Source: Thermoflexus hugenholtzii JAD2 (lineage in GTDB: Bacteria; Chloroflexota; UBA11872; UBA12225). From it: a stretch of DNA of 64,000 nucleotides. Under the pieces are notes generated by a model. It had not been told where the DNA came from and ran no database searches. It was given only the letters and a program-made list of their open reading frames with translations. Below, in pieces: positions 1,917-58,384 of this stretch (positions are counted from its first letter, which is position 1; every line of letters starts with the position of its first letter). Location of the stretch: positions 14,668 to 78,667 of the forward strand of contig CAMBEO010000002.1 in NCBI GenBank assembly GCA_945865725.1, read 5' to 3'. The translations under genes were made by a program, and so were the position numbers.

Positions 1917-2096
1917 GTGGTGCTTCCCTCTCCTTCGCCGCCAAGCACAGTGGGGCGCTTGCGGCAGATGGAAGGGGATGCCGGCAGGACCCCCACCCTC
2001 AGTCCCTCCCCCGCTGCGGCGGGAGAGGGAAGCACCACTGGGGGGACCCCCACCCTCAGTCCCTCCCCCGCTGCGGCGGGAGAGGGAAGCACCACC
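1917..2096. repeat. palindromic-repeat cluster: module B (reverse) + 2 tandem module A
   Basis: 1917-1976 is the reverse complement of CCCCTTCCATCTGCCGCAAGCGCCCC...GGAGAGGGAAGCACCAC. 1989-2038 and 2045-2096 are two copies of GACCCCCACCCTCAGT-CCCTCCCCCGCTGCGGCGGGAGAGGGA-AGCACCAC (cores 2004-2030 and 2061-2087). Confidence 0.95.
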
Positions 2097-2168
2097 ATCG
2101 TCCTCCGCCGTTTACCATTCCGTGGAGTGCGCGAGACCCGGCCAGGTGATGGCCAAGCAGTCCAAGGA

Positions 2169-3272
2169 ATGTCCCGAGTGGCAGTAGAGACCGACACGAC
2201 GCGCCGTCCGCCGGCACCGTCAACATCCTCCCCAGTGCCGTCGGCGTGGGCGTCCGGGGCGCCGCTGGCCGGCACCCGGGTGGTCGTGTCGGCGCCGGGA
2301 AGGTGCGGCATCGTCGGCAACCCGACCGACATGTACGGCGGGAGCGTGATCTCGTGCTCGGTCCCGATGCGCGCGTGGGTGCGGGTCGAACCGGCGCACC
2401 ACCTGGTCCTCGAGGCCGACGACGGCGCGGTCCAGATCGCGACGCCGGCCGACCTCGCGCCGGCGGGGACGCACACCGACATCCTGCGGGCGGCGATCCG
2501 GCATCTCGACCTCGGGTCCCTTCGCGCCCACGTGAGTTGCTGGAGCGAGCTCCCGTTCGGTGCCGGAATGTCGGGATCCACCGCGATGATGGTCGCGGCG
2601 GTGCGCGCCCTGACGACGTTCATCGGGGAGGCGCACGGTGCGCACGACCTGGCGGAGTTGGCGCGCGATGCCGAGCTGCGGTCGCTGGGGGTCACGTGCG
2701 GCTTCCAGGACCACTACATGGCCACGTTCGGTGGCGTGAACGCGATGGACTTCCGCGACAAGGAGTTCGACCGCCCGCCGGACGCGATGGTGTACGCGAC
2801 GATCGAACCGCTGGGAGGGGCGCTGGGGCACTTGGCGCGCCTGCCGTTCGTGCTGGCGAACACCGGCGTGGCGCACCATTCCGGGGCGGTGCACCGGCCG
2901 ATCCGGGTGCGGTGGCTGGAGGGTGACCCGGAGGTTCGCGAGGCGTACGTGCGGATCGGCGAGATCGCGCGCGAGGGGAAGACCGCAATGCTTCGCGGCG
3001 CCTGGGAGCGCCTGGGCGCGCTCATGAACGAGAACCATGACATCCAGCGGCGCCTCGGCGGGTCCGGACCGTCGAACGAGGCGCTAATCAGCGCGGCCTT
3101 GGCGGCTGGTGCCTTCGGGGCGAAGCTGGCAGGCGCGGGGCAGGGCGGGACGATCATCGCCCTGCACCCGGACCCCGAAGCCCTCGGCGAGGCGTTGCTG
3201 GCCGCTGGCGCGCGACGCTTGTTTTCCCCGGTGCCGGTCGAGGGCGTGCGCTTCGAGCGCGCGGAACCCTGA
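2169..3272 (+). CDS. GHMP-family sugar kinase (glucuronokinase-like)
   Basis: Motifs GRCGIVGNPTDMYGG, PFGAGMSGSTA (GHMP motif), GFQDHYMATFGGVNAMDF and GAGQGGT. ATG 2169 is the first start downstream of the repeats; the ORF is open from 1917 only through repeat DNA. Confidence 0.75.
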   Translation: MSRVAVETDTTRRPPAPSTSSPVPSAWASGAPLAGTRVVVSAPGRCGIVGNPTDMYGGSVISCSVPMRAWVRVEPAHHLVLEADDGAVQIATPADLAPAGTHTDILRAAIRHLDLGSLRAHVSCWSELPFGAGMSGSTAMMVAAVRALTTFIGEAHGAHDLAELARDAELRSLGVTCGFQDHYMATFGGVNAMDFRDKEFDRPPDAMVYATIEPLGGALGHLARLPFVLANTGVAHHSGAVHRPIRVRWLEGDPEVREAYVRIGEIAREGKTAMLRGAWERLGALMNENHDIQRRLGGSGPSNEALISAALAAGAFGAKLAGAGQGGTIIALHPDPEALGEALLAAGARRLFSPVPVEGVRFERAEP

Positions 3273-3310
3273 GCAAGTCGGCCCGTACACTCGCGGCGGG
3301 CGGCCCAGAT

Positions 3311-3362
3311 CCATCCCTCCCCTCCCCCGCGCCAACGCCGGCGCTTGCGGCGGACGGGGGGG
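3311..3362. repeat. palindromic repeat, divergent module B (reverse)
   Basis: The reverse complement reads CCCCCCCGTCCGCCGCAAGCGCCGGCGTTGGCGCGGGGGAGGGGAGGG, which aligns to module B. It is preceded at 3273-3290 by GCAAGTCGGCCCGTACAC, related to the 19-nt tail GCAAGTCGGGCGCGTACCG seen at two other loci. Confidence 0.6.
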
Positions 3363-3380
3363 CACAAGGGGGAGCGTACG

Positions 3381-4256: not shown

Positions 4257-4284
4257 CGCCGCCGCGCGGGGGATTGGTGACGCG

Positions 4285-5469: not shown

Positions 5470-5507
5470 TTACACGTCCGCCGGAGCTGAACGCCAACGC
5501 TGGCCGG

Positions 5508-5536
5508 AAGCGGGGTTGCCCCGCTTTTCGTGTTTC
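5508..5536 (+). terminator. rho-independent terminator after the ABC ATPase gene
   Basis: AAGCGGGG-TTG-CCCCGCTT stem followed by TTCGTGTTTC, starting 39 nt after the stop codon. Confidence 0.75.
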
Positions 5537-5611
5537 TGGCGGGTGGCGCAAGCTACTGGCCCGGCGGGGACGGTCCCGCGGGGCATGCATCGCGGACAAC
5601 GGAGGGGTAAC

Positions 5612-9774: not shown

Positions 9775-9843
9775 GCCCCCACCCCGCCGTCCTGACCCGC
9801 TCCCCGCGCCGCGAAGGGGGCCGAGTACTCGGATGACGAAGGG
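9775..9843. repeat. degenerate palindromic repeat (module C-like, reverse)
   Basis: Fills the gap between the convergent rbfA and ribF stops. It contains the CGAGTACTCG palindrome (9822-9831) followed by GATGACGAAGGG, which is the reverse of the CNTCGTNATC part of module C, plus a CCCCCACCCC end. Confidence 0.5.
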
Positions 9844-10830: not shown

Positions 10831-10920
10831 CGCGGTCGTTTCGGCGCGGTGCGCGCACGTTGTACCGGCCGCGCGTGTCCGCGCGCACTCGCAGGCGCCG
10901 ATCCGGGCGAACGGGGACGC

Positions 10921-10994
10921 CATCGTTATCCGCGTACGCGCCCCCTGTTTAAAACCCTCACGGGGGGAGAGAGGAGCAAGTCGGGCGCGTACCG
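10921..10994. repeat. palindromic repeat, module C variant with 19-nt tail
   Basis: CATCGTTATCCGCGTACGCG matches module C, followed by a degenerate core (CCCTCACGGGGGGAGAGAGGA) and GCAAGTCGGGCGCGTACCG (10976-10994), identical to 15928-15946. Confidence 0.65.
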
Positions 10995-13271: not shown

Positions 13272-13560
13272 GGTGGCGCGTCCTCACCGGCGACGGGGGC
13301 CGCCGGTGCACGAGCGGGGGGCAAGCCCGCCGGACAACAAAAAGGGCAGAGGACCAATCCTCTGCCCTGCCCGGTGCGCCCGTGATCGCCTTGCGGCGGT
13401 CGGGTCACACCGGGATCAGATACGGATAGTCGCCGCGAGTGACGTCGACGCCACGGCCCGGCGAGGCGGTGGCGTGGGGCGACAAGCGTGCGACCATCGA
13501 AGGGAAGGGTACGCGGGCGCCGCCGCTGGCGTCAATCGCGCCGGCGGCGGTCGCCGGCGG
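13272..13560 (-). promoter_or_regulatory. tyrS leader with terminator; candidate T-box or other attenuator
   Basis: 289-nt untranslated gap. A strong terminator hairpin plus U-tract lies about 60 nt upstream of the tyrS ATG and about 190 nt after the EF-G stop. An upstream CCCGGTG...TCTG can pair with the CACCGGG...CAGA 5' flank of the terminator, giving an alternative structure. UAC triplets are present. The canonical T-box UGGNACC sequence is not clearly recognisable by eye. Confidence 0.35.
13334..13367 (-). terminator. rho-independent terminator (minus strand)
   Basis: The minus strand reads GGGCAGAGGA-TTGG-TCCTCTGCCC (perfect 10-bp stem, 13344-13367) followed by TTTTTGTTG. Confidence 0.85.
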
Positions 13561-15645
13561 CTAGTGCTTGTCCGACTTCGTCTTTGCGTCCTCGATGACC
13601 TTCTGGGCGACGATCGCGGGCATCTCCTCGTAGTGGCCGAATTCGTAGGTGAAGGTGCCGCGCCCCTGCGTGAGCGACCGCAGACTCGTGGCGTACCGCA
13701 CCACCTCGCCCATCGGCACCTCGGCGTCGATGGTGGTCGTCGAGTCGCCGTTCGGGTTCATGCCCGTGACGCGCCCGCGCTTGGTGGACAGGTCACCCAT
13801 GATGTCGCCGGTATTGCCGTCGGGGACGGTGATGGCCACCGTCATGACCGGCTCCAGGAGGATGGCGCCGGCGCCCTCGACGCCCTTCTGGAACGCGAGC
13901 GACCCGGCGATCTTGAAGGCCATTTCCGAGGAGTCGACCGCATGTTCCTTGCCGTCGAGGAGGGTGACCTTCACGTCGACCATGGGGTAGCCGGCGAGGA
14001 TCCCGTCGGCCATCCGCTCCTGGATGCCCTTGTCGACAGCGGCACGGAAGGACGCGGAGATCGCGCCCCCGACGATGCGATCAACGAACTCGTAGCCCGA
14101 GGCGCGCGGGCGGGGTTCCAGCTCGATGGTGCAGACGCCGAACTGGCCGCTGCCCCCGGTCTGGCGGACGTGGCGGCCGTCGGCGCGTGCCCGGCCGCGG
14201 ATGGTCTCTCGATACGGGATGCGAAGCGGTTCGACCCGGAGGTCGGCGCCAAACTTGCGCCGGATCTTCTCGATCGTGATTTCGAGGTGGCTGTCGCCCA
14301 TCCCCTGGATGACCATCTGCCCGGTCTCCTCGTCACGATGGGCACGGATGGTGAGGTCTTCCTCCTGGATGCGCTGCATGGCCTGGCTCATGCGGTCCTG
14401 GTCCTGCCGGGCCTTCGCCTCGACGGCCGCGGAGTAGGTGGGCGCGGGGAAGGTCGGCGGCGCGAGGCGGAGGCGCCGTTCGCGCGCGCACAGGGTGTCG
14501 CCGGTCGTGGTCGCCGCTAGCTTGGCGATCGCCCCGATGTCACCCGCCCCGACGCTGCCTGCTGGCTCCTGGACCTTGCCCCTCAGGGTCATGATCGACC
14601 CGATGCGCTCGTCGCGATCATGCGCCTCGTTCCAGGTCGTCGAGTCCGAGTTGAGGGTGCCCGAGTAGACCCGGAAGAAGGTCAACTTGCCGATGAACGG
14701 GTCGGCAAGGGTCTTGAAGACGAGGGCCGCCAGGGGCCCTGCCGGGTTCGCAGGCAAGGAGATGGGGTCGGAGGAGGATGACTGCGTGGCGATGGCCGGC
14801 GCGACGTCCGCCGGCGACGGGAGAAGGTCGATGATGGCGTCGACGAGGCTCCCGATCCCCTTGCTCGAGGTGCCGGCGGTGACGAGAACAGGCGTGACCT
14901 TGGCGGCGCGTACGGCGGCGCGAAGGGCGGCGCGGATCTCGCCCTCGGTGAGGGTCTCACCCTCGAGGTACTTGATCGTCAGGTCATCGTCGGTCTCCGC
15001 GACCACCTCGACCAGCAGGTCGGCCAGGCGGGCCACGGTGTCGGCGAGGCCGGCCGGGACGGCGCCGGGAATGGCGGTGCCGTTGGCGCCGTAGGTATAG
15101 GCCTGGCGCGAGACGAGGTCGACGTACCCGGAGAACTGGTCGCGTTGGCCGATGGGGAGCTGGATGGCGACGACGGTGGGGCCGAAGCGCTCCCGGAACT
15201 GGTCGACGGTGCCGGTGAAGTCCGCGTTCTCACGGTCCGCGCGGTTGATGACGGCAATGCGAGGGGTGTCGGCCTTGGCGCAAGCAACCCACGCCTGGTC
15301 GGTGCCGACCTCGAGGCCGCCGACGGCGCAACTGACGAGGACGGCGCCGTCGATGACGCGCTGCGCCGCGGAGAGCTCGCCCACGAAGTCGGCGTAGCCG
15401 GGCACGTCGATGACGTTGACCTTGGTGCCTTGCCAGACGAACGGCAGGAGGGAGAGGTTGACCGACATGCGTCGCCGGTGCTCGTCCGGGTCGTAGTCGG
15501 AGGTCGAGGTGCCCTCATCGACGCGGCCGAGGCGCGAGATCGCGCCCGCGGCGTGCAACATTGCCTCGGCAATCGACGTCTTGCCACTGCCCATGTGACC
15601 GAACAGACCGACGTTTCGGATCGCCTCGGGTGGGAACGTGGTCAT
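13561..15645 (-). CDS. elongation factor G paralogue (EF-G2-like translational GTPase)
   Basis: Full five-domain EF-G architecture (DVPGYADF, NRADRE, IQGMGDSHLEI, LEPVMTVAITVP) with an atypical P-loop GHMGSGKTS. It is not in an rpsL-rpsG-fusA-tuf context. ATG 15645 is preceded by GAGGGG. Confidence 0.85.
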   Translation of the reverse strand: MTTFPPEAIRNVGLFGHMGSGKTSIAEAMLHAAGAISRLGRVDEGTSTSDYDPDEHRRRMSVNLSLLPFVWQGTKVNVIDVPGYADFVGELSAAQRVIDGAVLVSCAVGGLEVGTDQAWVACAKADTPRIAVINRADRENADFTGTVDQFRERFGPTVVAIQLPIGQRDQFSGYVDLVSRQAYTYGANGTAIPGAVPAGLADTVARLADLLVEVVAETDDDLTIKYLEGETLTEGEIRAALRAAVRAAKVTPVLVTAGTSSKGIGSLVDAIIDLLPSPADVAPAIATQSSSSDPISLPANPAGPLAALVFKTLADPFIGKLTFFRVYSGTLNSDSTTWNEAHDRDERIGSIMTLRGKVQEPAGSVGAGDIGAIAKLAATTTGDTLCARERRLRLAPPTFPAPTYSAAVEAKARQDQDRMSQAMQRIQEEDLTIRAHRDEETGQMVIQGMGDSHLEITIEKIRRKFGADLRVEPLRIPYRETIRGRARADGRHVRQTGGSGQFGVCTIELEPRPRASGYEFVDRIVGGAISASFRAAVDKGIQERMADGILAGYPMVDVKVTLLDGKEHAVDSSEMAFKIAGSLAFQKGVEGAGAILLEPVMTVAITVPDGNTGDIMGDLSTKRGRVTGMNPNGDSTTTIDAEVPMGEVVRYATSLRSLTQGRGTFTYEFGHYEEMPAIVAQKVIEDAKTKSDKH

Positions 15646-15823: not shown

Positions 15824-15946
15824 CCCCTTCCATCCGCCGCAAGCGCCCCGCGCTGCGGCGGGAGAGGGGAGACGGACCCCTTCCATCTGCCGCAAGCGCC
15901 CCGCGCTGCGGCGGGAGAGGGGAGACGGCAAGTCGGGCGCGTACCG
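15824..15946. repeat. two tandem module B palindromic repeats + 19-nt tail
   Basis: CCCCTTCCATC(C/T)GCCGCAAGCGCCCCGCGCTGCGGCGGGAGAGGGGAGACGG appears twice (15824-15876 and 15877-15927). The second copy is followed by GCAAGTCGGGCGCGTACCG (15928-15946). Confidence 0.95.
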
Positions 15947-18010: not shown

Positions 18011-18148
18011 TCCTTCCATCTGCCGCAAGCGCCCCGCGCTGCGGCGGGAGAGGGAAGTACCACCGCCACCCCATCCCCCGCCGGCGCGGGAGGAGGGAGA
18101 TGAATGTTCTCACCCCTAGCCCGTCTCCCGGCGGGAGAGGGGAAGTGG
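18011..18148. repeat. palindromic-repeat cluster: module B + two divergent core units
   Basis: 18011-18064 is TCCTTCCATCTGCCGCAAGCGCCCCGCGCTGCGGCGGGAGAGGGAAGTACCAC. 18067-18100 is CCACCCCATCCCCCGCCGGCGCGGGAGGAGGGAGA. 18111-18148 is CACCCCTAGCCCGTCTCCCGGCGGGAGAGGGGAAGTGG. Confidence 0.9.
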
Positions 18149-19359: not shown

Positions 19360-19622
19360 TCATCGCGAGCGGCTGCCGCCCGGGCAATCGACCCGCCGTT
19401 CCTAATCGGTAGCGGGACCCGGACTCGCCCCGTCGGCGTGGTACGGATCGCAGCGGTAGGATCGTCTGGAAGTCAATGGCGACGGGACAGGCGCGCATGT
19501 TGGACGGGGACGGACCCGACGGCGCGGCCCCGGCGAGGGGGCCCGTGACACGTCGCCTGCCGACGTCGCGGACGCGCGCCCCTGCACCTTCGGCCGCGCC
19601 CTCGTCATCCGCGTGGGGACGG

Positions 19623-19678
19623 CCCCCTCCATCGGCCGCAACAAGCACCCCCCAGACGCTTCGCGGGAGAGGGGAGCG
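19623..19678. repeat. palindromic repeat, module B2 variant
   Basis: CCCCCTCCATCGGCCGCAACAAGCACCCCCCAGACGCTTCGCGGGAGAGGGGAGC; closest to the intragenic copy at 45483-45540, sharing CCATCGGCCGCAACA-GCACCCCC. Confidence 0.8.
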
Positions 19679-19841: not shown

Positions 19842-22001
19842 ATGGGGGTCCGAATCGCGATCGCGGGTCCGCTCGCCATCCTGTTCGTGGTCCTCGCTAC
19901 CGGGGCGTTCATGGATGCCCGCAATGCAGACCTGGCACTTCCGGGCGTCCACGTCGAAGGCAAGCCCGTCGATGGCATGAATGCGACGGCGATCTCGTCG
20001 CTGGTGAGGGCCCTCTCGTCCGACCTGGTGGCGTCGCCGGTGACGTTTACCCACGCGGGCCGTACGTGGCGACCGACCGGCGCCGAGGTCGGCCTGAAAG
20101 TGGATGGCGCGGCGATGGGCGAGGCGGCGCTGACGCTCGGGCGCCAATGGCCATGGCCGTTGCGGTGGCTCTCGGTCGTTGCGACGCCGGCGTGGCGCCC
20201 GGCGGTGCCGTTTCGCGCCAGCGTGGAACACGCGACCCTTTCGTCGTACCTCGAACGACTCGCCACGTCCGTCGATCGTGCGCCGGTGGAACCGTCGGTG
20301 TCGATCCGCACCGGGCAAGTGCAAGTGGTCCCGGGCGTCCCGGGGGAACGTGTCGACGTGGGCGCCACGTCGCGTGCGGTGCGAGTGCCGGGCGCCACCA
20401 GCGACCGGCAGGTCGTGCCTCTGGCGGTCGTGAATTCGCCTCCGCGAATCCCGGCCGAAAGCGCCGCCGAGGCGCAGCGGCATGCGCAGCGAATCCTCGC
20501 CGCGCCGCTTTCCGTGCGCGCGGGTGACAAGTCGTGGGTGCTGTCGCTCGCACAGCTCGAACAGATGCTCGAGTTCCGGCGCGAGGTCGGTAGCGGGGGT
20601 GATCGCCTGGTCGCCAGCCTTTCGGAGACGGCGCTCGCGGCGTTCGTGCGGACGATCGCACAGCAAGTCGATCGAGCGCCCCAGGACGGGCAGATCCGGT
20701 GGGACGGCAAGGCGATCGTCTTCGTGAAGGACGGCTTGGACGGCCAGCAGCTCGACCAGGCCGCGGCCGTTCGCACCCTGGTCGATGGGGCTTCGTCCGA
20801 CTCCCGTGACGTCGTGCTGCCCGTAAAGGTGGCGCCGACAACCGTGTCGAGTGCCCGCCTGGCGGCACGGGGGATCCGGGAACTCATCGGGACGGGCACG
20901 TCGAAGTTCGCAGGGTCGCCGCCCGAGCGAGCGAACAACGTCAAGGTGGCGGCGAGCAAGTTGCACCACCAGGTGATCGCGCCGGGCTCGATCTTCTCGT
21001 TCCTCGAAGCGCTCGGCCCGATCACCGCGGAGACCGGGTACCTCGAGGGACTGACCATCCAGGGGGACGCCACGGTTCCCGGGATCGGCGGGGGCGTGTG
21101 CCAGGTCTCGACGACGCTGTTCCGCGCGGCGTTCTACGCGGGCCTCCCGATCGTGGAGCGCCACCAGCACGTGTACCGGGTCTCGTACTACGAACAGGAC
21201 GGGAGCCCGCCCGGGTTCGACGCCGCGGTGTACGACCCGGGAGTCGACTTCCGGTTCCGGAACGACACCGGGTCACCGCTGCTGATCGACGTGAGCGTGG
21301 ACCAGGCGACATCCACGGTGGCATTCCGGCTCTTCGGCGAGACGACGGGACGCGACGTAAAGCTCGGTGCGGCGCGCGCGAACGAGAAGCCGTCGCCGGC
21401 GATGGGTCAGGACGTTGCAGACCCCAAGCTCGACTTCGGCCTTCGGAAGCAGGTCGAATGGAAGGCGACCGGGGTCGATGCGACGATCCGCCGGACGATC
21501 GCGGTCGCCGGAAAGCCCGGGACGACCGACACGTTCGCCAGCCGGTACGTGCCGTGGCAGGAGAAGTGGTCGATCGGCACGGGGCCTGTGACGCTGAAGA
21601 CGCCCCCGACGGTGAAGGCGGCGATTGCCGAAGGCGCGGTGTCGCCTGGCACGCCGGGCGCTATCGTCGCGTTGCGGGCGCTGCTCTCACCGCCGCTTCC
21701 TGTCGAAGGCGCGGATTCATCTCCTCAAGGCCCGGGTGATCGAACTGACCCTGCCGCCGTGGCCGGCGCCCAGGCACCTGGCTCCCGTGCCCCCGCCCCG
21801 CCCGGCCTCGGCGCGCCGGCACCGGCGGCCGTCGCCGTCCCTGCTGGACAGGTCCCCGCTGCCCCTGCATCGGTTTCTAGGGCGGCGACCGCCCCCGCGG
21901 TGACCGCCCCGGCCGCGACGTCGGCCACGACAGCACCGACGCCGGTGATCGCGCCGCCCACGCCGGCGATCATGCCGACCCCGCCAGCGGCGCGCGCGTA
22001 G
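19842..22001 (+). CDS. VanW-domain protein (YoaR-like) with N-terminal TM helix and Ala/Pro-rich tail
   Basis: VanW core GIGGGVCQVSTTLFRAAFYAGLPIVERHQHVYRVSYY and DAAVYDPGVDFRFRNDTGSPLLI, with TM helix IAIAGPLAILFVVLATGAF just after ATG 19842. The ORF is open from 19476, but that upstream part has lower third-codon G/C and contains a repeat, so the start is uncertain. Confidence 0.8.
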   Translation: MGVRIAIAGPLAILFVVLATGAFMDARNADLALPGVHVEGKPVDGMNATAISSLVRALSSDLVASPVTFTHAGRTWRPTGAEVGLKVDGAAMGEAALTLGRQWPWPLRWLSVVATPAWRPAVPFRASVEHATLSSYLERLATSVDRAPVEPSVSIRTGQVQVVPGVPGERVDVGATSRAVRVPGATSDRQVVPLAVVNSPPRIPAESAAEAQRHAQRILAAPLSVRAGDKSWVLSLAQLEQMLEFRREVGSGGDRLVASLSETALAAFVRTIAQQVDRAPQDGQIRWDGKAIVFVKDGLDGQQLDQAAAVRTLVDGASSDSRDVVLPVKVAPTTVSSARLAARGIRELIGTGTSKFAGSPPERANNVKVAASKLHHQVIAPGSIFSFLEALGPITAETGYLEGLTIQGDATVPGIGGGVCQVSTTLFRAAFYAGLPIVERHQHVYRVSYYEQDGSPPGFDAAVYDPGVDFRFRNDTGSPLLIDVSVDQATSTVAFRLFGETTGRDVKLGAARANEKPSPAMGQDVADPKLDFGLRKQVEWKATGVDATIRRTIAVAGKPGTTDTFASRYVPWQEKWSIGTGPVTLKTPPTVKAAIAEGAVSPGTPGAIVALRALLSPPLPVEGADSSPQGPGDRTDPAAVAGAQAPGSRAPAPPGLGAPAPAAVAVPAGQVPAAPASVSRAATAPAVTAPAATSATTAPTPVIAPPTPAIMPTPPAARA

Positions 22002-22060
22002 CGCCAGCTTCCTACCGGCGCTCCCGGTGCGACCAGCCTGCGGTCGGAGCGACACCAGGG

Positions 22061-22178
22061 CGGCGGAGCGGGCTGGAAGCCCGCGCACCCAGTTCGCCCG
22101 CCCGGTGGTCAGGTCGGCAGAGCGGGCGGGACGCCCGCGGTCCCGGGGCGGAGGAGCCGGCGGGACGCCCGCGCACCC
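22061..22178. repeat. three tandem imperfect hairpin units (GCGGGC-N5-GCCCGC type)
   Basis: Units at 22061-22090, 22113-22144 and 22148-22178. Hairpins are GCGGGC-TGGAA-GCCCGC (22068-22084), GCGGGC-GGGAC-GCCCGC (22122-22138) and GCGGG-ACG-CCCGC (22160-22172), each followed by GCACCC or GGTCCC. They lie between convergent genes. Confidence 0.75.
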
Positions 22179-22202
22179 GGTACGCGCGCAGGATGCAGCG
22201 CG

Positions 22203-26625: not shown

Positions 26626-26672
26626 CCCGCCTCTCCCGCCGGCGTGGGAGTTTTCAGCAGGGGGTGGGGGCC
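26626..26672. repeat. degenerate palindromic repeat (module A-like, reverse) in the nuoC-nuoD gap
   Basis: CCCGCCTCTCCCGCCGGCGTGGGAG...GGGGTGGGGGCC aligns loosely to the reverse complement of module A (CCCTCTCCCGCCGCAGCGGGGGAGGG...GGGTGGGGG). Confidence 0.4.
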
Positions 26673-26717
26673 TTCCGTCGCCCCCGCTGCGCTTTCCTTG
26701 CACCGGAGTCCCGCGCC

Positions 26718-29974: not shown

Positions 29975-30037
29975 CCCCCACCACCGTTATCCGCGTATGC
30001 GGTCCCTCCCCTGCTGCGGCGGGAGAGGGAAGCGAAC
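29975..30037. repeat. palindromic repeat, module C, in the nuoF-nuoG gap
   Basis: CCCCCACCACCGTTATCCGCGTATGCGGT-CCCTCCCCTGCTGCGGCGGGAGAGGGA-AGCGAAC (core 30004-30030). Confidence 0.9.
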
Positions 30038-30059
30038 CCCACGAAAGCGTGCGAGAACG

Positions 30060-32783
30060 ATGACCGGGGCACCGCCTCCAGCAACCGTTACCGTGACCGT
30101 CGACGGCAAGGACGTTGCCGTACCGCCGGGAACCTTGGCCGTCGAGGCGGCGCGGATGGCCGGCGTCGACGTGCCGGTGTTCTGCTATCACCCGAAGTTG
30201 TCGCTGGCCGGCGCGTGCCGTATGTGCATGTGTGAGATCGGCATGGCATCGCCGCCCGGGCAGCCCCCGCGCCCGCCGGGACTGATGACCGCGTGCACGA
30301 CCCGCGTCTCCAACGGGATGACGATCAACACCGAGGCGCCCGCCGCGCTGAAGGCGCGCGAGGGGGTGATCGAGTTCCTGCTCATCAACCATCCCCTCGA
30401 CTGCCCGGTGTGCGATGCCGGTGGCGAGTGCCCGCTGCAAGACAACAGCCACGCCTGGGGCCCCAAGGAAGGCCGCTTCACCGAGCAGAAGCGCCTGGCG
30501 CGCAAGGGCGCCGCGCTCTCCCCGCTCGTCGTCCTGGACCAGGAGCGGTGCATCGCCTGCTACCGCTGCACGCGGTTCATGGACGAGGTCCCGGGCGAGG
30601 CCGAGCTGGCGTTCTTCTCCCGGGGATTCGCCTCTGAATTGCGGACCGCCGGCGACGCGCCGATGAAGTCGCGGTTCCAGGGCAACATCATCGACCTGTG
30701 CCCGTGCGGGGCGTTGACCAGCGAGACGTACCGGTTCAAGGCGCGGCCGCAAGACCTTGACCATGCGGACAGCGTCTGCGGGCTGTGCCCCGTCGGGTGC
30801 AACGTGATCCTCGACACCCGGTCGAACCAGGTCACGCGGGTCCGTCCCCGGCAGAACGAGGCGGTCAACGAGATCTGGGTGTGCGACAAGGGGCGCTTCG
30901 CGCACCACTGGTCGTCGAGTCCCAACCGCCTCTCCGGCCCGTGGGTACGCGGGGCGGACGGCCTGCACCCGGCGACGTGGCGGCAGGCCTACCAGGAGGC
31001 GGCGCGTCGCCTCGCGGCCGTCAAGGCGGCGCACGGTGGCGGCGCCATCGGCGTGATCGGCGGCCGGAACCTGACCAACGAGGATGCCCATGCCCTCGCG
31101 CGGTTCGCCGCCGAGGTGCTCGAGACCCCGCACGTCGACTTCCGGGTCGGTGCGCAGGTTGCGGAGGCCAACCCCCTGTCCCCGTTCGGGCTGGACGCGT
31201 TCAACACCGGCCTCGACGCCGCCGAGAAGGCGGGCGCGATCCTCCTGGTCGGCACCGACGTCCACGACGAGGTGCCGGTGCAGTGGCTGCGCATCCGGAA
31301 GGGCGTGAAGGCGGGCGCGCGCCTGGTCGTGGCCGGGCCCCGGGCAACCGAGGCCGACCGCCTCGCGTTCCACCGCCTGCGCCATCGGCCCGGTTCGGAA
31401 CTTGCGCTGCTGGTGGGCATCCTTGCCGCCCTCGTCGAGTCGCCCCCGCTAGATGCCGATGGCGCGCCACGTGACCTGTCCGGCCTCGCCGCGGCAATCG
31501 GCGGGACAGGCGTCGACCAGGCCGCGGTGCACGCCGGCGTGGACGCCGTGACGATCCGCGCGGCGGCGGCGACGCTGGCCGGGGCGCGGGACCCGCTGGT
31601 GTACGTCGGGGCCAGGCTGGCGATCCGGCATGACGCGGGCGCGATCGGCATGGCGGTCGGCAACCTCGGCCGTGCCCTCGGGTACCCGGCGCGCGTGAAC
31701 TTCCTGGTCGAGGGCGCGAACGGGCGCGGCGCCGAGTGGGCCGGCCTCGTCCCGGGGCCCGGTGGCCTGCCGGCGGGACACATCATCGCGAAGGCCGCCG
31801 CGGGCGAGATCAAGGCCCTGTACGTGGTCGGCGAGAACCTCCTGGAGACGCATCCTGACGCCGCCCAGGCGCGCGAGGCGCTGGAACGCGCCGAGGTCGT
31901 CATCGTGCACGAGCTCTTCCCGACGGTGACGGCGCAGGGGGCGGACGTGGTGTTCGCGGCGACGGGCCTGATGGAGAAGGACGGCACGACCACGAGCGTC
32001 GAGGGGCGCCTGCAACGCATCTACGCGGCGGTGCACCCGCACGGATCCGACCGCGTGCCGGACTGGCGGATCCTGAGCGACCTTGCGGCGGCGATGGGCG
32101 CCGGCCTCGGGTACTCGGCCGCGTCCGAGGTCACCAAGGACCTGCTTGCGGACGTGCCGGCATACGCGTCGCTCGAGGGGAAGTTGCCCGGCAGTGCCGG
32201 GGTGCTCGTTCGCGCCGTGGCCGTGCCGGCGGCAGGTGGAGGAGGCTTCCTTACGGCCCCCTTCCATCTGCCGACAGCGCCCCGCGCCGCGGCGGGAGAG
32301 GGAAGCACCACCACCTCCCCCGGGCGGGCAAGGATGCCCGCGGACCAACGGGAGAGGGAAGCACCGCCGGCCGTACCTCCCTCTCCCGCCGCCGCGCTTG
32401 GGGCACTGGCGGCAGGTGGAGGGGCCCTCTTCCTGGTGGCAAGCCCCGAGATCGTCGGCCACGAGACCATCGTCGCCGAGACGCCCGAGCTTCTGTCGAC
32501 GGTGCCGGAGGCGTACGTGGAGGTGAACCGCGACGACGCGGCGCGCCTTGGGATCGTCGCCGGGGGACTGGTCGAGGTTCGGGGTCCCGCGGGTGCAGTC
32601 ACGCGGGTGGCCCGGGTGAACGGCCGTGTCCCGTCAGGCACCTGCTTCGCACCGGAGAACCTCGGCTCGCCCCGGATCAACGCCATCCTCCGTTGGTCGA
32701 CCGAGGTGCCCCTGGTCACGCTCCGGCCGGTGGTCGTCGAAGGCGCGGAGGCCACCGGGGCCGCCGTGGCAGGTGCCCGATGA
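30060..32783 (+). CDS. nuoG: NADH-quinone oxidoreductase subunit G (carries an in-frame repeat-derived insertion)
   Basis: 2Fe-2S CYHPKLSLAGACRMC, HPLDCPVCDAGGECPLQD, CIACYRCTRF and a molybdopterin-like domain. ATG is at 30060. Residues encoded by about 32228-32424 are repeat DNA read in frame. Confidence 0.93.
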   Translation: MTGAPPPATVTVTVDGKDVAVPPGTLAVEAARMAGVDVPVFCYHPKLSLAGACRMCMCEIGMASPPGQPPRPPGLMTACTTRVSNGMTINTEAPAALKAREGVIEFLLINHPLDCPVCDAGGECPLQDNSHAWGPKEGRFTEQKRLARKGAALSPLVVLDQERCIACYRCTRFMDEVPGEAELAFFSRGFASELRTAGDAPMKSRFQGNIIDLCPCGALTSETYRFKARPQDLDHADSVCGLCPVGCNVILDTRSNQVTRVRPRQNEAVNEIWVCDKGRFAHHWSSSPNRLSGPWVRGADGLHPATWRQAYQEAARRLAAVKAAHGGGAIGVIGGRNLTNEDAHALARFAAEVLETPHVDFRVGAQVAEANPLSPFGLDAFNTGLDAAEKAGAILLVGTDVHDEVPVQWLRIRKGVKAGARLVVAGPRATEADRLAFHRLRHRPGSELALLVGILAALVESPPLDADGAPRDLSGLAAAIGGTGVDQAAVHAGVDAVTIRAAAATLAGARDPLVYVGARLAIRHDAGAIGMAVGNLGRALGYPARVNFLVEGANGRGAEWAGLVPGPGGLPAGHIIAKAAAGEIKALYVVGENLLETHPDAAQAREALERAEVVIVHELFPTVTAQGADVVFAATGLMEKDGTTTSVEGRLQRIYAAVHPHGSDRVPDWRILSDLAAAMGAGLGYSAASEVTKDLLADVPAYASLEGKLPGSAGVLVRAVAVPAAGGGGFLTAPFHLPTAPRAAAGEGSTTTSPGRARMPADQREREAPPAVPPSPAAALGALAAGGGALFLVASPEIVGHETIVAETPELLSTVPEAYVEVNRDDAARLGIVAGGLVEVRGPAGAVTRVARVNGRVPSGTCFAPENLGSPRINAILRWSTEVPLVTLRPVVVEGAEATGAAVAGAR
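32228..32424. repeat. intragenic palindromic-repeat composite inside nuoG
   Basis: Module B(+) at 32257-32311, module D(reverse) at 32317-32349 plus a half core at 32350-32364, and module B(reverse) at 32371-32424. It is bracketed by the 15-bp direct repeat GGCGGCAGGTGGAGG (32228-32242 and 32408-32422), 180 bp apart. Confidence 0.9.
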
Positions 32784-32889
32784 CTTCCCCAGCACGAGAA
32801 CGGGCGACGGCCGCCCTGCCCGGTATCCTCCGCGGGACGCCGACGGGGCGTCGGGTCATCACCGCGGGCGGAACCTTCCAGGGGCACCC

Positions 32890-33983: not shown

Positions 33984-34174
33984 ACCCCCACCATCGTTAT
34001 CCGAGTACTCGATCCCTCCCCCGCTGCGGCGGGAGAGGGAAGCACGACCCCCTGCCCCAATACGACCCCCACCCTCAATCCCTCCCCCGCTGCGGCGGGA
34101 GAGGGAAGCACCACCACCTGCCCCAATACGACCCCCACCCTCAGTCCCTCCCCCGCTGCGGCGGGAGAGGGAGG
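33984..34174. repeat. palindromic-repeat cluster: module C + two module A, in the nuoH-nuoI gap
   Basis: Cores at 34014-34040, 34080-34106 and 34146-34172. The last two units are a 66-bp tandem duplication, with CCTGCCCCAATACG at both 34051 and 34117. Confidence 0.95.
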
Positions 34175-34189
34175 CGAAAGGAAAACCTC

Positions 34190-37622: not shown

Positions 37623-37735
37623 GGTGGGGCATGGTCCGCGTCCTTCCCTCTCCCGCCGCAGCGTGGGGCGCTTGCGGCAGATGGAAGGGGGCCGTCTTGG
37701 GTGGGGCATGGTCCGCGGGCATCCTTGCCCGCTCC
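37623..37735. repeat. nested repeat: module B (reverse) inside module D, in the nuoL-nuoM gap
   Basis: The 18-bp direct repeat GGTGGGGCATGGTCCGCG (37623-37640 and 37700-37717) flanks a reverse module B (37641-37690). Module D continues as GGCATCCTTGCCCGC, with hairpin GCGGGCA-TCCT-TGCCCGC at 37715-37732. Confidence 0.9.
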
Positions 37736-40893: not shown

Positions 40894-41031
40894 CCCCCAC
40901 CATCGTTATCCGCGTACGCGATCCCTCCCCCGCTGCGGCGGGAGAGGGAAGCACTGTCGCCCTCACCACTACCCTTACCCCCACCCTCAGTCCCTCCCCC
41001 GCTGCGGCGGGAGAGGGAGGGAGTACGCCCC
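40894..41031. repeat. palindromic-repeat cluster: module C + module A, in the nuoN-argF gap
   Basis: Module C at 40894-40954 (core 40923-40949). Module A at 40977-41031 (core 40992-41018) is 55/55 identical to 42074-42128. Confidence 0.95.
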
Positions 41032-41058
41032 ATCATCCAGCCTGAGGAGGCTTCGGCC

Positions 41059-42048: not shown

Positions 42049-42128
42049 GCGGGGGGAGAGGGAAGCACGGGAGACCCCCACCCTCAGTCCCTCCCCCGCT
42101 GCGGCGGGAGAGGGAGGGAGTACGCCCC
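42049..42128. repeat. half core + module A downstream of argF
   Basis: 42049-42067 is a 3' half core, CGGGGGGAGAGGGAAGCAC. 42074-42128 is a full module A (core 42089-42115) identical to 40977-41031. Confidence 0.95.
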
Positions 42129-42204
42129 GTCGGCGATCGGTGCCGGGGTATGCTGGCCTGAGGGTCGCCATGCGTGACGGTGGCGCCGGGACGGGGTCTG
42201 CGAC

Positions 42205-44418: not shown

Positions 44419-46122
44419 ATGGGAGACAGCGGAGCGGCGGGTGACGTGGGAGGGATGTCCGCGGACCGCGCGTACCGCTACCGCGTGCGCCGTGGCGTCG
44501 CGGAATGGTTCGACGGAGTGGCGGCGACGCGGCGGGAGTGGCGCGCGCGCAACGCGTACTACCACGGTGAGATCGCGCGGCTCGCGCGGCAGGTCATCCC
44601 GCCCGGCGCGCGCGTCCTGCTGCTCGGGTGCGCGACTGGCGACCTCCTCGCCTCGCTGCGCCCGTCTTTCGGGGTCGGTATCGACGTCAGTGGCGCGATG
44701 GTTCGCGAGGCGAATGCCCGGTGGGGACGTCCGGACGCAATCCCTGGCAGCACCCTCGCGTTCGTACAGGCCGACGCGCAAGAGTTGCCGTTCGCTTCGA
44801 GGTTCGACTTCATCGTCTGTTCCGACCTCCTCGGCTACCTCGAGGACATCCAGGCCATGCTGGTAGGCCTGCACGCGGTCTCGACGCCGCGGACGGCCAT
44901 CCTCGTCACGTCGTGGAACTGGGCGTGGCAACCGGCCCTGTGGCTTGCCGAACGGGTCGGCGCGAAGATGCCCGACCCGGGCCAGAACTGGTTGGGCCGG
45001 AACGACATCGAGAACCTGTTCGCCCTCTCCGACCTTGAACCGCGTGCGCGCGAGGCCGCGGTGCTGTCTCCGGTCAACCTCCCGGTCTTGGGTCCGCTCG
45101 TCAACCGGATCTTGATAAAGGTGCCTGCGCTGCAGCACTTGGCCCTCGTGCACGCATGGGTCGTGCGGCCCAAGGGGTTCCGGCCGGCACCGGAGGCCCT
45201 TTCGACGACGGTCCTCGTGCCGTGCCGGAACGAGGAGGGCAATATCCGCGCGGCGGTAGACCGCCTGCCCAAACTCGGGTCGCACGTGGAACTGATCTTC
45301 GTCGATGGCGCGTCGACGGACGGGACGCGGGCGGCGATCCTCGAGGAGATCGAGCGGTACCGGGGCGTGCGGGACATCAAGCTGCTCGACCAGGTTCCGG
45401 GGCCGGACAGTCGGCCTGACCCGAACTCGCCGTTCGCCGCGACGACCGGGTTCGTGAACGGCGGGTTGGTGGCGCCCGTTGCTCCCTTCCATCGGCCGCA
45501 ACACGCACCCCCAAACCCTGCGGCGGGAGAGGGAGGCACCATCGGCCCGGTGATCATGCTGAAGCTGGGCAAGGGCGACGCGGTACGCAAGGGCTTCGCC
45601 GCGGCGTCCGGGGACGTGCTGTTCATTCTTGATGCCGATTTGACGGTGCCCCCGGAGGACCTGCCGAAGTTCCTCGAACCGATCGCGGCGGGCCGGGCGG
45701 AGTTCGTGAACGGGACGCGCCTCGTTTACCCGCTCGAGGACGAGGCGATGGGTCCGATCAACTTCGTGGGAAACCGGTTCTTCAGCATCGTCTTCACGTG
45801 GCTGCTGGGACAGCCGATCAAGGACACCCTGTGCGGGACGAAGGTGCTGCGCCGATCGGACTACCGGATGCTGGCGGCGAACCGCGGGTACTTCGGGGAC
45901 TTCGACCCGTTCGGGGACTTCGACCTACTGTTCGGCGCGGCGAGGCTGGGCCTTCGAATCCTCGAGGTGCCAGTGCGGTACCGGCGACGGACGTCGGGCT
46001 ACTCCAAGGTGCTGGTCTTCAAGCACGGCATCCTGCTCCTGCAGATGAGCGTGATCGGGTTCCGGCGCCTCAAGCTGGCCCGCTGGCTCGGGCGTTCGGT
46101 GCCACCATCGGTCCCGGGATGA
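44419..46122 (+). CDS. SAM-dependent methyltransferase / family-2 glycosyltransferase fusion (carries an in-frame repeat)
   Basis: N-terminal class I methyltransferase region (ARVLLLGCATGDLLASL, DFIVCSDLLGYLEDI). C-terminal GT2 region (VLVPCRNEEGNI, FVDGASTDGT, GKGDAVRKGF, FILDADLTVPPEDL). ATG 44419 follows GGAGA. Repeat module B2 is read in frame at 45483-45540. Confidence 0.8.
   Translation: MGDSGAAGDVGGMSADRAYRYRVRRGVAEWFDGVAATRREWRARNAYYHGEIARLARQVIPPGARVLLLGCATGDLLASLRPSFGVGIDVSGAMVREANARWGRPDAIPGSTLAFVQADAQELPFASRFDFIVCSDLLGYLEDIQAMLVGLHAVSTPRTAILVTSWNWAWQPALWLAERVGAKMPDPGQNWLGRNDIENLFALSDLEPRAREAAVLSPVNLPVLGPLVNRILIKVPALQHLALVHAWVVRPKGFRPAPEALSTTVLVPCRNEEGNIRAAVDRLPKLGSHVELIFVDGASTDGTRAAILEEIERYRGVRDIKLLDQVPGPDSRPDPNSPFAATTGFVNGGLVAPVAPFHRPQHAPPNPAAGEGGTIGPVIMLKLGKGDAVRKGFAAASGDVLFILDADLTVPPEDLPKFLEPIAAGRAEFVNGTRLVYPLEDEAMGPINFVGNRFFSIVFTWLLGQPIKDTLCGTKVLRRSDYRMLAANRGYFGDFDPFGDFDLLFGAARLGLRILEVPVRYRRRTSGYSKVLVFKHGILLLQMSVIGFRRLKLARWLGRSVPPSVPG
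45483..45540. repeat. intragenic palindromic repeat (module B2) inside the GT2 domain
   Basis: TCCCTTCCATCGGCCGCAACACGCACCCCCAAACCCTGCGGCGGGAGAGGGAGGCACC, translated as APFHRPQHAPPNPAAGEGGT. It lies between the GT2 DxD-proximal strand and the GKGDA motif. Confidence 0.85.
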
Positions 46123-51811: not shown

Positions 51812-51969
51812 CCCGCTTCCATCCGCCGCAAGCGCTCCACGTTGGGGCGGGAGAGGGGAGACGGGAGAAGGATGCCCCCACCCTCAGTCCCTCCCCCGCT
51901 GCGGCGGGAGAGGGAAGCACCACCCCCTCCCCTATCCACTCCCGCGCTGGGGCGGGAGTGGGAAGCACC
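51812..51969. repeat. palindromic-repeat cluster: module B + module A + compensated core variant
   Basis: Module B at 51812-51863. Module A at 51875-51922 (core 51889-51915). A variant hairpin, CCACTCCCGC (51936-51945) paired with GCGGGAGTGG (51952-61), forms a perfect 10-bp stem. Confidence 0.92.
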
Positions 51970-52070
51970 GCCCCGACCCCCACCCCCGGCGCCCCCCGCC
52001 TGGCGCTGGAGAGGCAAGCCCGAGGCCGTTGCTACACTGCCGCGCGGCCGGCAGGCGTCCCGGCGACCTG

Positions 52071-56768: not shown

Positions 56769-58279
56769 CCGGTGGCCTACGCCTCGAAGCCCCGGCCGGC
56801 GTCGCACCGCGCCGGACGCGCGCGGAGCGCCTCGCGCTTGCGGCGGACCTCCGACGCGTCGTCGCGGATGGTGACGTCCTTTCCGATGACGTCGAGCTCG
56901 AGGTCTACGGGTACGACGCGTCATTCATGGCCCAACTCGCGCCTTCCGTGCCCGATGTTGCGATCGTCGCGCGATCGGAGGCCGACGTTGTGGCCGTGAT
57001 GCGCTACGCCGCGGCGAACGGCGTGCCAGTCACGCCCCGAGGAGCGGCGAGCGGGTGTGCCGGCGGTTGCGTCGCCATGCATGGCGGGATCGTCCTCGCG
57101 ATGAACGCGATGAACCGCGTCCTTGACGTCGATGCCCCGAACGGGCAGGTAACCGTCGAGCCGGGCGTCGTGCATGCCCGTCTCATCGAGGTCCTTGCGC
57201 CTCACGGCCTCTTGTTTCCTCCCGATCCGGGGTCGAGCCGCATGGCGACGGTCGGGGGCATGGCCTCGACGAACGCCCATGGGGTGCGCGCGGTGAAGTA
57301 CGGCCCGACCGGCGCGTGGGTCCTCGGGCTGCACGTCGTCCTGCCGGACGGGACCTTGATCGAGACCGGATCGGTCGGGAGCCGGGCCAAGCAGTCGTCG
57401 GCCGGACTGGAGTTGACGAAGCTGTTCGTTGGCGCGGAAGGGACGCTTGGCGTCGTCACGCGCCTGCGCCTGAAGCTGCTGCCACGTCCCAAGGCGCGGG
57501 CACTCGTGATCGCGATGTTCGACGTCCTCGAACGTGCGGGCGAGGCGGTGCAGGCTGTCTTCCGCGCCGGCATCTCGCCCTCTGCCATCGAGATCCTGGA
57601 CGCCCGGTCACTCCGGGCGGCGAACCTGTACCGCCCGGGGCTGGGCTTGCGCGAGGCGGAGGCAATGCTGCTCTTCGAGGTCGACGGCAACCCCGCCGGC
57701 GTGCGATGGGACGCCGAGACCGTCGTGGAGGCCGTGAGGGAGCTCGCGACCCACGTGGAATGGTCTGACCAGGAGGCGCAGATCGCGCGCTTATGGGAGG
57801 CGCGGTCGGTCATCGGCGCGGCCGTCGGCGTGCTGCGCCCGGGAAGTGCCCGCGCCTACGCCGGCGAGGACATCTGCGTTCCCGTCGACCGCATCCCCGA
57901 GGCGTTGCGCGCGATCCAGGACCTGAGCGCCCGCCATGGCATCCCGGTCGCCACGTATGGGCACATCGGCGGGGGAAGCCTTCACCCGGCGCTCCTGGTC
58001 GATGGTCGCCAACGGGACGACGTGCGCCGGGCGATCGAACTGGCCGACGCGATCCACCTGCTTGCACTGGACCTTGGGGGCACCGTCACCGGTGAGCACG
58101 GGGTCGGCGCGGCGCGCGCGATGTACATGCCCCGCGAACACGGGCCTGCGTTGGACACGATGCGGGCCATCAAGCGCGCCCTGGACCCGACCGGGATCAT
58201 GAACCCTGCGACGATCTTCCCTGAGGACGTGCCACCGACGCCGGCCCTCGACGTGACCCTCGTGCCGGGCGGACGGTGA
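56765..58279 (+). CDS. FAD-linked oxidase (GlcD / D-lactate dehydrogenase family)
   Basis: FAD-binding PCMH domain (VTPRGAASGCAGG, MNRVLDVDAPNGQVTVEPGV) and a C-terminal GTVTGEHGVG motif. The GTG overlaps the upstream stop (GTGA). Confidence 0.85.
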   Translation: MTGGLRLEAPAGVAPRRTRAERLALAADLRRVVADGDVLSDDVELEVYGYDASFMAQLAPSVPDVAIVARSEADVVAVMRYAAANGVPVTPRGAASGCAGGCVAMHGGIVLAMNAMNRVLDVDAPNGQVTVEPGVVHARLIEVLAPHGLLFPPDPGSSRMATVGGMASTNAHGVRAVKYGPTGAWVLGLHVVLPDGTLIETGSVGSRAKQSSAGLELTKLFVGAEGTLGVVTRLRLKLLPRPKARALVIAMFDVLERAGEAVQAVFRAGISPSAIEILDARSLRAANLYRPGLGLREAEAMLLFEVDGNPAGVRWDAETVVEAVRELATHVEWSDQEAQIARLWEARSVIGAAVGVLRPGSARAYAGEDICVPVDRIPEALRAIQDLSARHGIPVATYGHIGGGSLHPALLVDGRQRDDVRRAIELADAIHLLALDLGGTVTGEHGVGAARAMYMPREHGPALDTMRAIKRALDPTGIMNPATIFPEDVPPTPALDVTLVPGGR

Positions 58280-58313
58280 CACCCGACGCACGCTTCCTAG
58301 GTCCGCGTCCGTC

Positions 58314-58384
58314 ACCCCCCTCTCCCGCTGGGCGGGGGAAGGGCAGGAGGTGGGGGTTGGTCCGCGGGCATCCCTGCCCGCCCT
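58314..58384. repeat. degenerate core + module D
   Basis: CCCCCCTCTCCCGCTGGGCGGGGGAAGGG is a reverse-type core, followed by GGAGGTGGGGGTTGGTCCGCGGGCATCCCTGCCCGCCC (module D, hairpin GCGGGCA-TCCC-TGCCCGC). Confidence 0.7.

Follow-up and report, generated by a model that had tools for sequence, protein, structure and literature searches.

The DNA examined here (hereafter the window) is a stretch of 64,000 nt of contig CAMBEO010000002.1, assembly GCA_945865725.1, from Thermoflexus hugenholtzii JAD2 (positions 14,668 to 78,667); its GC content is 70% and its GC skew is positive throughout. Pfam scans of the ~50 genes called in it recovered housekeeping functions only, including cmk, the nusA-infB-rbfA operon, ribF, truB, tyrS, fusA, proB, nuoA-N, argF, cdaA, a glycosyltransferase/ABC cluster, obg and relA, and no transposase, in agreement with an earlier interpretation made from the letters alone (the sequence-only reading). 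Between these genes, and in places within them, lie ~30 related palindromic units at 17 loci, each of which was read individually. These repeats are a lineage-specific expansion in an uncultured Chloroflexota bacterium of 70% GC, and on the evidence of its architecture their core, together with module A or C, is a relative, though not a literal member, of the BoxC element of Escherichia coli.

The repetition is far above chance. The 26-nt core CCCTCCCCCGCTGCGGCGGGAGAGGG is present in 10 copies with three or fewer mismatches, all on the + strand, against an expectation of 0.00 (none in 100 shuffles), and the right arm of its hairpin, GCGGGAGAGGG, which is common to the modules, gave 35 matches against 5.1 expected and a shuffle maximum of 11. 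A repeat search of the window returned a 58-nt unit (11 copies), a 61-nt unit (11 copies) and an 88-nt family, along with the left part of module C (four copies), module D (three copies) and one B' pair. The sequence-only reading had described about 30 units at 17 loci as a dispersed mosaic of small palindromic non-coding repeats, akin to bacterial interspersed mosaic elements (BIMEs), and this description is borne out; its modules A to D were likewise recovered by the repeat search, and the 19-nt tails at 10976 and 15928 are indeed identical. Contigs of four other, independent metagenome assemblies of the same strain match the window without a single gap over the arrays at 99.6-99.99% identity, and therefore the arrays are not an assembly artefact; the motif is also abundant outside the window, contrary to the absence elsewhere that would have suggested a local duplication. 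In three arrays Tandem Repeats Finder (TRF) detected near-perfect tandem duplications, repeating every 57, 53 and 66 nt at 100%, 98% and 95% identity, respectively. Furthermore, 88 nt of the array at 40894 form a block with 84% identity to the first part of the nuoH-nuoI array, and argF is bracketed by direct 58-nt copies (40977-41034 and 42074-42131) whose 98% identity extends to a unique 3' flank, GGGAGTACGCCCC. As argF follows nuoN in relatives too, these copies were added around a resident gene. Amplification has thus proceeded partly by perfect local tandem duplication and partly by the copying of composite blocks (Table 1).

Table 1. Members of the repeat family in the window, with bit scores for R1, a covariance model built only from Chloroflexota copies; energies are RNA folds
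Feature	Position	Strand	Remarks
B-type unit	1917-1976	-	Long imperfect hairpin with G-rich arm and AAGCACCAC flank; divergent spacer between rluB-like and galK-like genes
A-type three-block unit	1989-2038	+	CCCCCACCC / TCAGT / CCCTCCCCCGC-TGCG-GCGGGAGAGGG / AAGCACCAC; R1 67.4 bits; first copy of perfect 57-nt tandem duplication (TRF 1987-2095, 100%); G-quadruplex motif on - strand; -23.1 kcal/mol, z -2.98
A-type unit, second tandem copy	2046-2095	+	R1 67.4 bits
Degenerate B-like unit	3311-3362	-	Spacer between galK-like gene and next gene
Degenerate member, no full core	9775-9843	+	5 nt past rbfA stop; CCCCCACCCC block and CCGAGTACTCGG palindrome
Module C left part, inner hairpin and 19-nt tail	10913-10994	+	Tail pairs with CGCGTACGCGCCC segment
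Two tandem B-type units and 19-nt tail	15824-15946	+	Period 53 nt, 98%; divergent spacer; -73.7 kcal/mol, z -3.6
B-type unit, then two weak three-block-like units	18011-18147	+	-29.8 kcal/mol, z -4.04; R1 25.2 and 22.5 bits
B' unit	19623-19676	+	80% identity to copy at 45484; 5' of VanW-like gene or within its N-terminus (start uncertain)
Degenerate three-block unit (CCTCTCCCGC...GGGGGTGGGGGC)	26626-26690	-	nuoC-nuoD spacer; under R1 threshold
C-type unit: C-block, 21-nt inserted palindrome, core hairpin	29975-30038	+	nuoF-nuoG spacer, directly 5' of conserved nuoG ribosome-binding region; R1 50.0 bits
Composite: B(+), D(-), partial right arm, B(-)	32228-32420	+	In frame in nuoG
Array C-A-A	33984-34177	+	Fills nuoH-nuoI spacer; R1 56.1, 67.6 and 65.0 bits; TRF period 66, 95%
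D-flank, B(-), D hairpin GCGGGCATCCTTGCCCGC	37623-37732	-	nuoL-nuoM spacer; begins right at end of nuoL stop codon
Array C-A	40894-41023	+	nuoN-argF spacer; R1 57.7 and 62.7 bits
Truncated right arm and A-type unit	42049-42131	+	3' of argF; R1 62.7 bits
B' unit	45483-45539	+	In frame in methyltransferase-GT2 gene; read as APFHRPQHAPPNPAAGEGGT
Array B, A, A', degenerate unit	51813-52020	+	Divergent spacer; R1 67.9 and 49.7 bits; A' has perfect variant stem CCACTCCCGC/GCGGGAGTGG
A' variant overlapping + strand D-module hairpin	58312-58381	-	R1 40.7 bits

The A type, CCCCCACCC-TCAGT-core-AAGCACCAC, is represented by seven canonical copies and two variants, and the C type (three copies and a relative at 10913) is an A type in which a 21-nt palindrome replaces TCAGT. 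The B and B' types (~10 copies) are imperfect hairpins of ~50 nt that have only the G-rich arm and the flank in common with A, and the D type is the hairpin GCGGGCATCCTTGCCCGC (3-4 copies). The sequence-only reading held that all copies share the core; in fact the full core is carried only by the A and C types (10-12 units), and the B types retain the right arm alone. The copies at 3311, 9775, 26626 and 42049 are degenerate or partial, and the loci at 9775, 26626, 3311 and 10921 are either degenerate or related through side modules only; the CCGAGTACTCGG palindrome at 9775 recurs in module C. A conserved word of 14-24 nt, GCGGCGGGAGAGGGAAGCACCACC, is common to all module types. Modules B and D are different hairpins built on the same G-rich arm or 3' flank, and this sharing gives rise to BIME-like mosaics. 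A D-module-like hairpin, GCGGGC-NNNN-GCCCGC, was also seen in each of three tandem units of ~47 nt at 22055-22189, after the stop codon of a VanW-like gene; these units are absent from the locus list of the sequence-only reading.

The main unit consists of a C-rich block, a linker of 4-5 nt (in type C the inserted palindrome) and a mirror block, which is the 5' arm of a hairpin of 11-12 bp closed by GCGGGAGAGGG. The modules as originally delineated are real, but module A is not an arbitrary flank: it is a mirror copy of the 5' arm of the hairpin, perfect at 9/9 positions in 69 of 97 units and matching at 8/9 or better in 81, and the control, a perfect mirror on the 3' side, was found in none of the 97. 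The flank repeats the 5' arm inclusive of the conserved C opposite A, and is not the complement of the 3' arm. This C.A mismatch in the stem is kept in 111 of 142 distinct copies. The mRNA-sense strand of the main unit is a stable hairpin (Table 1). The G-rich strand of the window unit reads CCCTCTCCCGC-CGCA-GCGGGGGAGGG-ACTGA-GGGTGGGGG, with its blocks in the order required for a purine-motif intrastrand triplex, and the G-quadruplex (G4) motif GGGGGAGGGA(C/T)TGAGGGTGGGGG occurs in all seven canonical A units, which supply 7 of the 21 G4 motifs of the window. Judging from this layout, the G-rich strand has the potential for three folds, namely hairpin, intrastrand purine triplex and G-quadruplex. 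No unit contains a stop codon in any frame, and no window copy has a T-run.

The sequence-only reading placed the family in the right class of object, but was wrong to regard it as unlike any named family. The Rfam search that it had proposed gave no match at the gathering thresholds and only a chance microRNA match at E<=1, and literature searches with the core string retrieved unrelated papers only. The core with module A has, however, the architecture of BoxC, also described successively as PIT, TMECO and HPG1/2, the last as a 'G-quadruplex-hairpin-duplex switch' (PMC4666352; Kaplan et al. 2016, PMC5100583), and the same arrangement is seen in the published BoxC/TMECO and HPG sequences, such as CCCTCTCCCTGTGGGAGAGGGCCGGGGTGAGGGC (PMC4666352 Table 1; PMC5100583). 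In both, a pyrimidine block pairs with a complementary purine block as a hairpin, in which one mismatch is often conserved, and a mirror purine block follows beyond a short loop; both are G/C-rich, 35-47 nt long and highly identical from copy to copy, lie between genes, for the most part close to 3' ends, have no linked transposase, and are found in inverted pairs (here in relatives and in Azospirillum). R1 matched the E. coli BoxC pair in the hrpB-mrcB spacer with 26.4 bits (E 2e-4, model positions 1-47, full length) and 18.5 bits. BLAST of the generic unit (see below) against E. coli genomes gave no match, probably because of low-complexity masking. We further compared the units with the TMECO pattern CCCTCNCCC N3-6 GGGNGAGGG N3 GGGNGAGGG, for which 3610 copies in 262 proteobacterial genomes have been reported (Holder et al. 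2015, PMC4666352). The 9-nt C-rich block CCCTCNCCC is present in all A and C units in the form CCCTCTCCC, the complement of the 3' arm, and the first purine block, GGGGGAGGG, is complementary to it with one mismatch, a T.G (C.A on the opposite strand).

The window elements also differ from BoxC in several respects. A G-C clamp extends their hairpin, whose tetraloop is TGCG, their blocks are CCCTCCCCC/CCCACCCCC as opposed to CCCTCTCCC/CCCTCACCC, and their hosts are Chloroflexota rather than Proteobacteria. The window has ~1 three-block unit per 5 kb; E. coli K-12 has 23 in its 4.6 Mb, and the densest Enterobacter genome on record has 143. In the window they are mostly direct tandems on one strand, mixed with the hairpin modules B and D, and include in-frame genic copies, whereas TMECO was reported as always intergenic.

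The NuoG protein encoded in the window is identical to one metagenome protein in ENA, and its relatives are proteins of Chloroflexota metagenome-assembled genomes (MAGs); proteins of the window are also encoded on an NCBI contig of 93 kb. In the nearest relatives sampled (loci L078 and L077; 73-79% NuoG identity) the units are absent from every orthologous nuo spacer; these spacers are short or unrelated (nuoH-nuoI has 23 nt in L078 vs 214 nt in the window), and the R1 model gave no match on either locus. This implies that the units were gained in the lineage of the window. The relatives available fall into two groups: some are at least 99.6% identical and without indels, and the others reach no more than 79% protein identity. 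The nuoF-nuoG spacer of L078 (6974-7078) holds an inverted element with CCCCACCACCGTT and CAAGTCGGCGCGTAGG, like the left part of module C and the 19-nt tail; relatives of the family thus exist in L078 in other forms, and by this resemblance the side modules are older than the A-type expansion. In the JGI metagenomes 0 matches were obtained for the window-specific 3' flank, and for the B left arm there was a single chance match, in a coding region of a 54% GC contig, so that B-type units were seen only in the lineage of the window.

The core itself is far more widespread. The exact 26-mer was found at more than 75 loci in at least 15 species-level genomes, nearly all of them Chloroflexota MAGs labelled Ktedonobacterales, Thermomicrobiales or Sphaerobacterales. 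One of the genomes is Bergeriella (Neisseriaceae), in which the 26-mer and its mirror C-block lie in a prophage (L056 6457-6503), just 5' of a gene start; this prophage is also present three times in IMG/VR (L087-L089). On the Azospirillum lipoferum plasmid AZO_p5 (L084 1498-1610) there is an inverted doublet of near-identical three-block units with the same mirror C-block, in which the hairpin is CCCTCCCCCGC-TGG-GCGGGAGAGGG, its loop one base shorter; R1 scores the two units at 45.7 and 37.6 bits. These hosts belong to other phyla, and the inverted doublet is the usual form in Azospirillum. The doublet was detected at 766 places in 100 plasmid or chromid records, mostly of Azospirillum, with up to ~40 per chromid, and single units in Sinorhizobium, Rhizobium, Pantoea and Neisseria. 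We found no published name for the doublet or for these single units.

In the MAGs of other Chloroflexota the units conform to a generic layout, in which a stop codon is followed after 0-5 nt (most often 1 nt) by GCCCCC(A/T)CCCC, then AAC, CAGC or CGGC, the hairpin CCCCTCCCCCGC-TGCG-GCGGGAGAGGGG and GCTTTYC or GAGCC. This regularity raises the possibility that the units are functional cis-elements selected in place, either intrinsic terminators or hairpins stabilising the 3' ends of mRNAs. Among 91 such units, 57 of the 77 with a called upstream neighbour lie past the 3' end of a co-oriented gene, only one of the 64 with both neighbours called lies in a divergent spacer, and in all 17 tandem-gene contexts the unit is nearer to the stop (0-125 nt, ten at 5 nt or less) than to the next start (36-1028 nt). 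Roughly half of the MAG units have three or more T in the 8 nt after the stem, and one variant was called terminator-like. By eye only, the stop codons right before the units in L001-L075 look TAG-rich, often reading GTAG, which is unusual at 65-68% GC.

The window itself fits such a role poorly. None of 10 window units has three or more T in the 8 nt past the stem, and none between 25 and 44 kb is terminator-like. Units sit inside a single operon (nuoF/G, H/I and L/M), in three divergent spacers and in two genes, and the orthologous spacers of the relatives work without them. With gene calls based on GC at third codon positions, a family member was found in 15 of the 27 spacers of 60 nt or more, so that the proposal that units occupy most gaps above about 60 bp holds only just, and the loci 32228-32420 and 45483-45540 are not gaps at all, being genic. 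The other spacers hold ordinary features, including unique terminators made up of a hairpin and a T-run, and as these T-tailed terminators occur elsewhere in the window the repeats are not the ordinary terminators of this genome. Two such unique terminators were noted at 5515-5550 (+), 3' of an ABC ATPase gene, and at 13335-13372 (-), 3' of fusA. In E. coli, PIT/BoxC showed neither promoter nor terminator activity in an earlier study (reported in PMC4666352). Moreover, function alone does not explain near-identical copies of 47-60 nt. We therefore consider selection of the repeats in place as cis-elements unlikely.

The genic copies, which the sequence-only reading had not noticed, are in frame in nuoG and in a gene encoding a methyltransferase fused to a family 2 glycosyltransferase (GT2). 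The nuoG insert lies between the regions encoding the Molybdopterin and Molydop_binding domains, both of which are in one frame; orthologues at 79% and 73% identity are without the repeat segment, and the DNA alignment to L078 breaks exactly at the insert (232 nt in the window vs 97 nt in L078). In the AlphaFold model of NuoG, which is weak overall (mean pLDDT 60.6), residues 652-750 are a low-confidence coil, lending soft support to the prediction that the insert is a disordered linker. The 65-aa insert had no match at E<=10 among 5.8 billion proteins. A BoxC-like unit (27.5 bits) is present in the same NuoG linker of L086, a 62%-identical orthologue (BLASTP). The B' unit at 45483-45539 falls in a hypervariable loop of the GT2 domain, which in relatives of 82-84% identity is of similar length and unrelated sequence. 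Generic units are also read through in other genomes, as a C-terminal extension in L034 and as an inverted doublet in a membrane protein of L060, and most genic copies use the frame that gives (S/T)P...GEG or GER, the minus-strand unit of L060 using another. The VanW-like gene may start at 19476 (841 aa) and not at 19842, which would turn the B' unit at 19623-19676 into the third genic copy, in another frame (PPPSAATSTPQTLRGRGE). Near the nuoG insert, a repeat-free nuoG-nuoH spacer of 106 nt (32784-32889) corresponds in relatives to a called open reading frame (ORF) of 43-56 aa without a Pfam match (L077 12562-12732; L078 9666-9797).

In adding a peptide segment to proteins while also populating spacers, these copies recall the Rickettsia palindromic elements (RPEs), one of the groups to which the sequence-only reading likened the family. 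The likeness extends to the in-frame sites (the NuoG linker in two lineages, the GT2 loop, the C-terminal extension and the membrane protein) and is one of behaviour only, as RPEs are 100-150 bp long, AT-rich and restricted to Rickettsia, with no similarity in sequence or architecture, and genic copies are a minority here. The comparison with REP/BIME elements drawn at the same time stands in so far as the arrays are palindromic mosaics, but no feature specific to REP/RAYT systems or to miniature transposons was found.

Taking these observations together, it seems on the whole probable, if by no means certain, that the repeats are selfish or near-neutral, non-autonomous structured DNA of the BoxC/PIT/TMECO kind. 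As no gene of the element can do the copying, the copying enzyme does not lie within it; the units would be copied by an unlinked host-encoded enzyme, or by template switching during replication or repair at the structure. The absence of stop codons and of a T-run accounts for their being tolerated in the nuo operon and in frame in protein linkers. In other Chloroflexota the T-tailed version, lying immediately 3' of stop codons, probably serves in addition as a 3'-end hairpin or terminator, and it is the T-less form that has spread through the genome of the window. The 58-88 nt length of the block copies suggests that whole units, and not a word alone, get copied. TMECO loci have been associated with raised local genomic variability (PMC4666352, PMC5100583).

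A number of points weigh against this assignment. The literal TMECO pattern is not present: 9 nt (GCCGCAGCG) separate the 9-nt blocks where TMECO has a first loop of 3-6 nt, although in structural terms two additional G-C pairs reduce this spacing to a loop of 4 nt; GGGTGGGGG takes the place of GGGNGAGGG as third block; and the second loop, of 3 nt in TMECO, measures 5 nt in the window and, by our own block definition, 4-5 nt in the MAGs. Modules B and D have no mirror block, which leaves only ~40% of the units BoxC-like. The stem pairs are almost invariant, so that covariation says nothing for or against the structure and lends it no support, and Holder et al. did not find the TMECO triplex in vivo (PMC4666352). 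The E. coli elements are always intergenic and without strand bias (PMC4666352, PMC5100583), whereas here there are in-frame copies, and 11 of the 12 strong units (R1 model) are on the + strand, which is the G-rich one, GC skew being positive all along the window. This bias is unlike E. coli BoxC. A replication-strand hypothesis was rejected, as the orientation of 85 MAG units does not follow the GC skew (50/85, p 0.13, not significant). Finally, the in-frame copies, the stop-codon anchoring in relatives and the identical 26-mer across phyla are unusual behaviours, and the latter two suggest a specific recognition or insertion mechanism, which a reading as near-neutral junk leaves unexplained.

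Pursuing that last point leads to the rather speculative possibility that the unit is not passive, but a cross-phylum element for which a specific mechanism of recognition or insertion places the C-block 0-5 nt past stops, where it would act as a structural switch (hairpin, triplex or G4) at 3' ends; the T-less derivative in the window would then have escaped this constraint, flooded operon spacers and been exapted as protein linkers.

The units further resemble repetitive extragenic palindromic (REP) sequences, BIMEs and REPINs in being short, extragenic, high-copy imperfect palindromes that lie 3' of genes, form mosaic arrays of a few module types and, in some genomes, inverted doublets. On this view a single-copy REP-associated tyrosine transposase (RAYT; IS200/IS605-like, Y1) encoded elsewhere in the genome would recognise the hairpins as single-stranded DNA and copy them in trans. 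The asymmetric C.A mismatch would allow the strands to be told apart, both Azospirillum and the MAG loci are rich in inverted doublets, and the placement of the strong window units on the G-rich strand would also be in keeping with such copying. Nevertheless, no module has the GTAG or CGTC tag expected next to the palindrome (PMC3733652), the mirror third block has no counterpart in REPs, and inverted doublets are rare in the window, where direct tandems prevail. The genes bracketed by units are ordinary, and unit orientation in the MAGs does not, as noted above, follow GC skew. A RAYT, for which the sequence-only reading had advised looking, did not turn up: E. coli RayT, run with phmmer against 4854 six-frame ORFs from the window and 78 loci, had 0 matches at E<=10, in a weak search that used a single query and covered ~0.6 Mb, less than 2% of any one genome. 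The literature on Chloroflexi together with REP/RAYT likewise yielded nothing specific. A REP/REPIN system thus appears a doubtful explanation.

Miniature inverted-repeat transposable elements, that is deletion derivatives of insertion sequences with terminal inverted repeats, moved by DDE enzymes and leaving target-site duplications, are a much poorer match and a very improbable source. The B unit does resemble two 17-nt inverted ends around a 14-nt centre, but the units are merely 45-60 nt long, direct tandem arrays and partial units are common, inspection of the seven canonical A units revealed no target-site duplication, and neither the window nor the loci showed an insertion sequence with matching ends. 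The scans of the window and of ~0.6 Mb of related loci identified no transposase; an IS982-like DDE transposase ORF does lie between two units in L070 (1159-2049, -), with no sign that its ends match the units. It is scarcely credible that the family is a DNA uptake sequence (DUS) or some other short word bound by a protein, its abundance due to biased uptake or nucleoid organisation and not to unit copying, for although the word common to all modules and inverted pairs near gene ends recall the DUS pairs of Neisseria, the similarity spans 47-88 nt inclusive of linkers and flanks, perfect tandem duplications exist, and the word is nearly absent from coding sequence except in the inserted copies.

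The BoxC design thus extends to a distant phylum, where, if the window is representative, it reaches ~40 times its density in E. coli. To our knowledge BoxC/PIT/TMECO repeats have been known since the 1990s without an assigned function or copying mechanism. The absence of copies from the nearest relatives implies that the insertions are recent, and this, together with the stop-codon anchoring in other Chloroflexota and the read-through in NuoG in two lineages, could make the BoxC question testable. If the structural-switch interpretation were true, the dense population in Chloroflexota would give a handle on the 30-year-old question of what BoxC does and how it is copied. At a practical level, stop-free units of this kind in high-GC Chloroflexota MAGs can inflate ORFs or pass as protein sequence, and annotations of such genomes should be read with this in mind.

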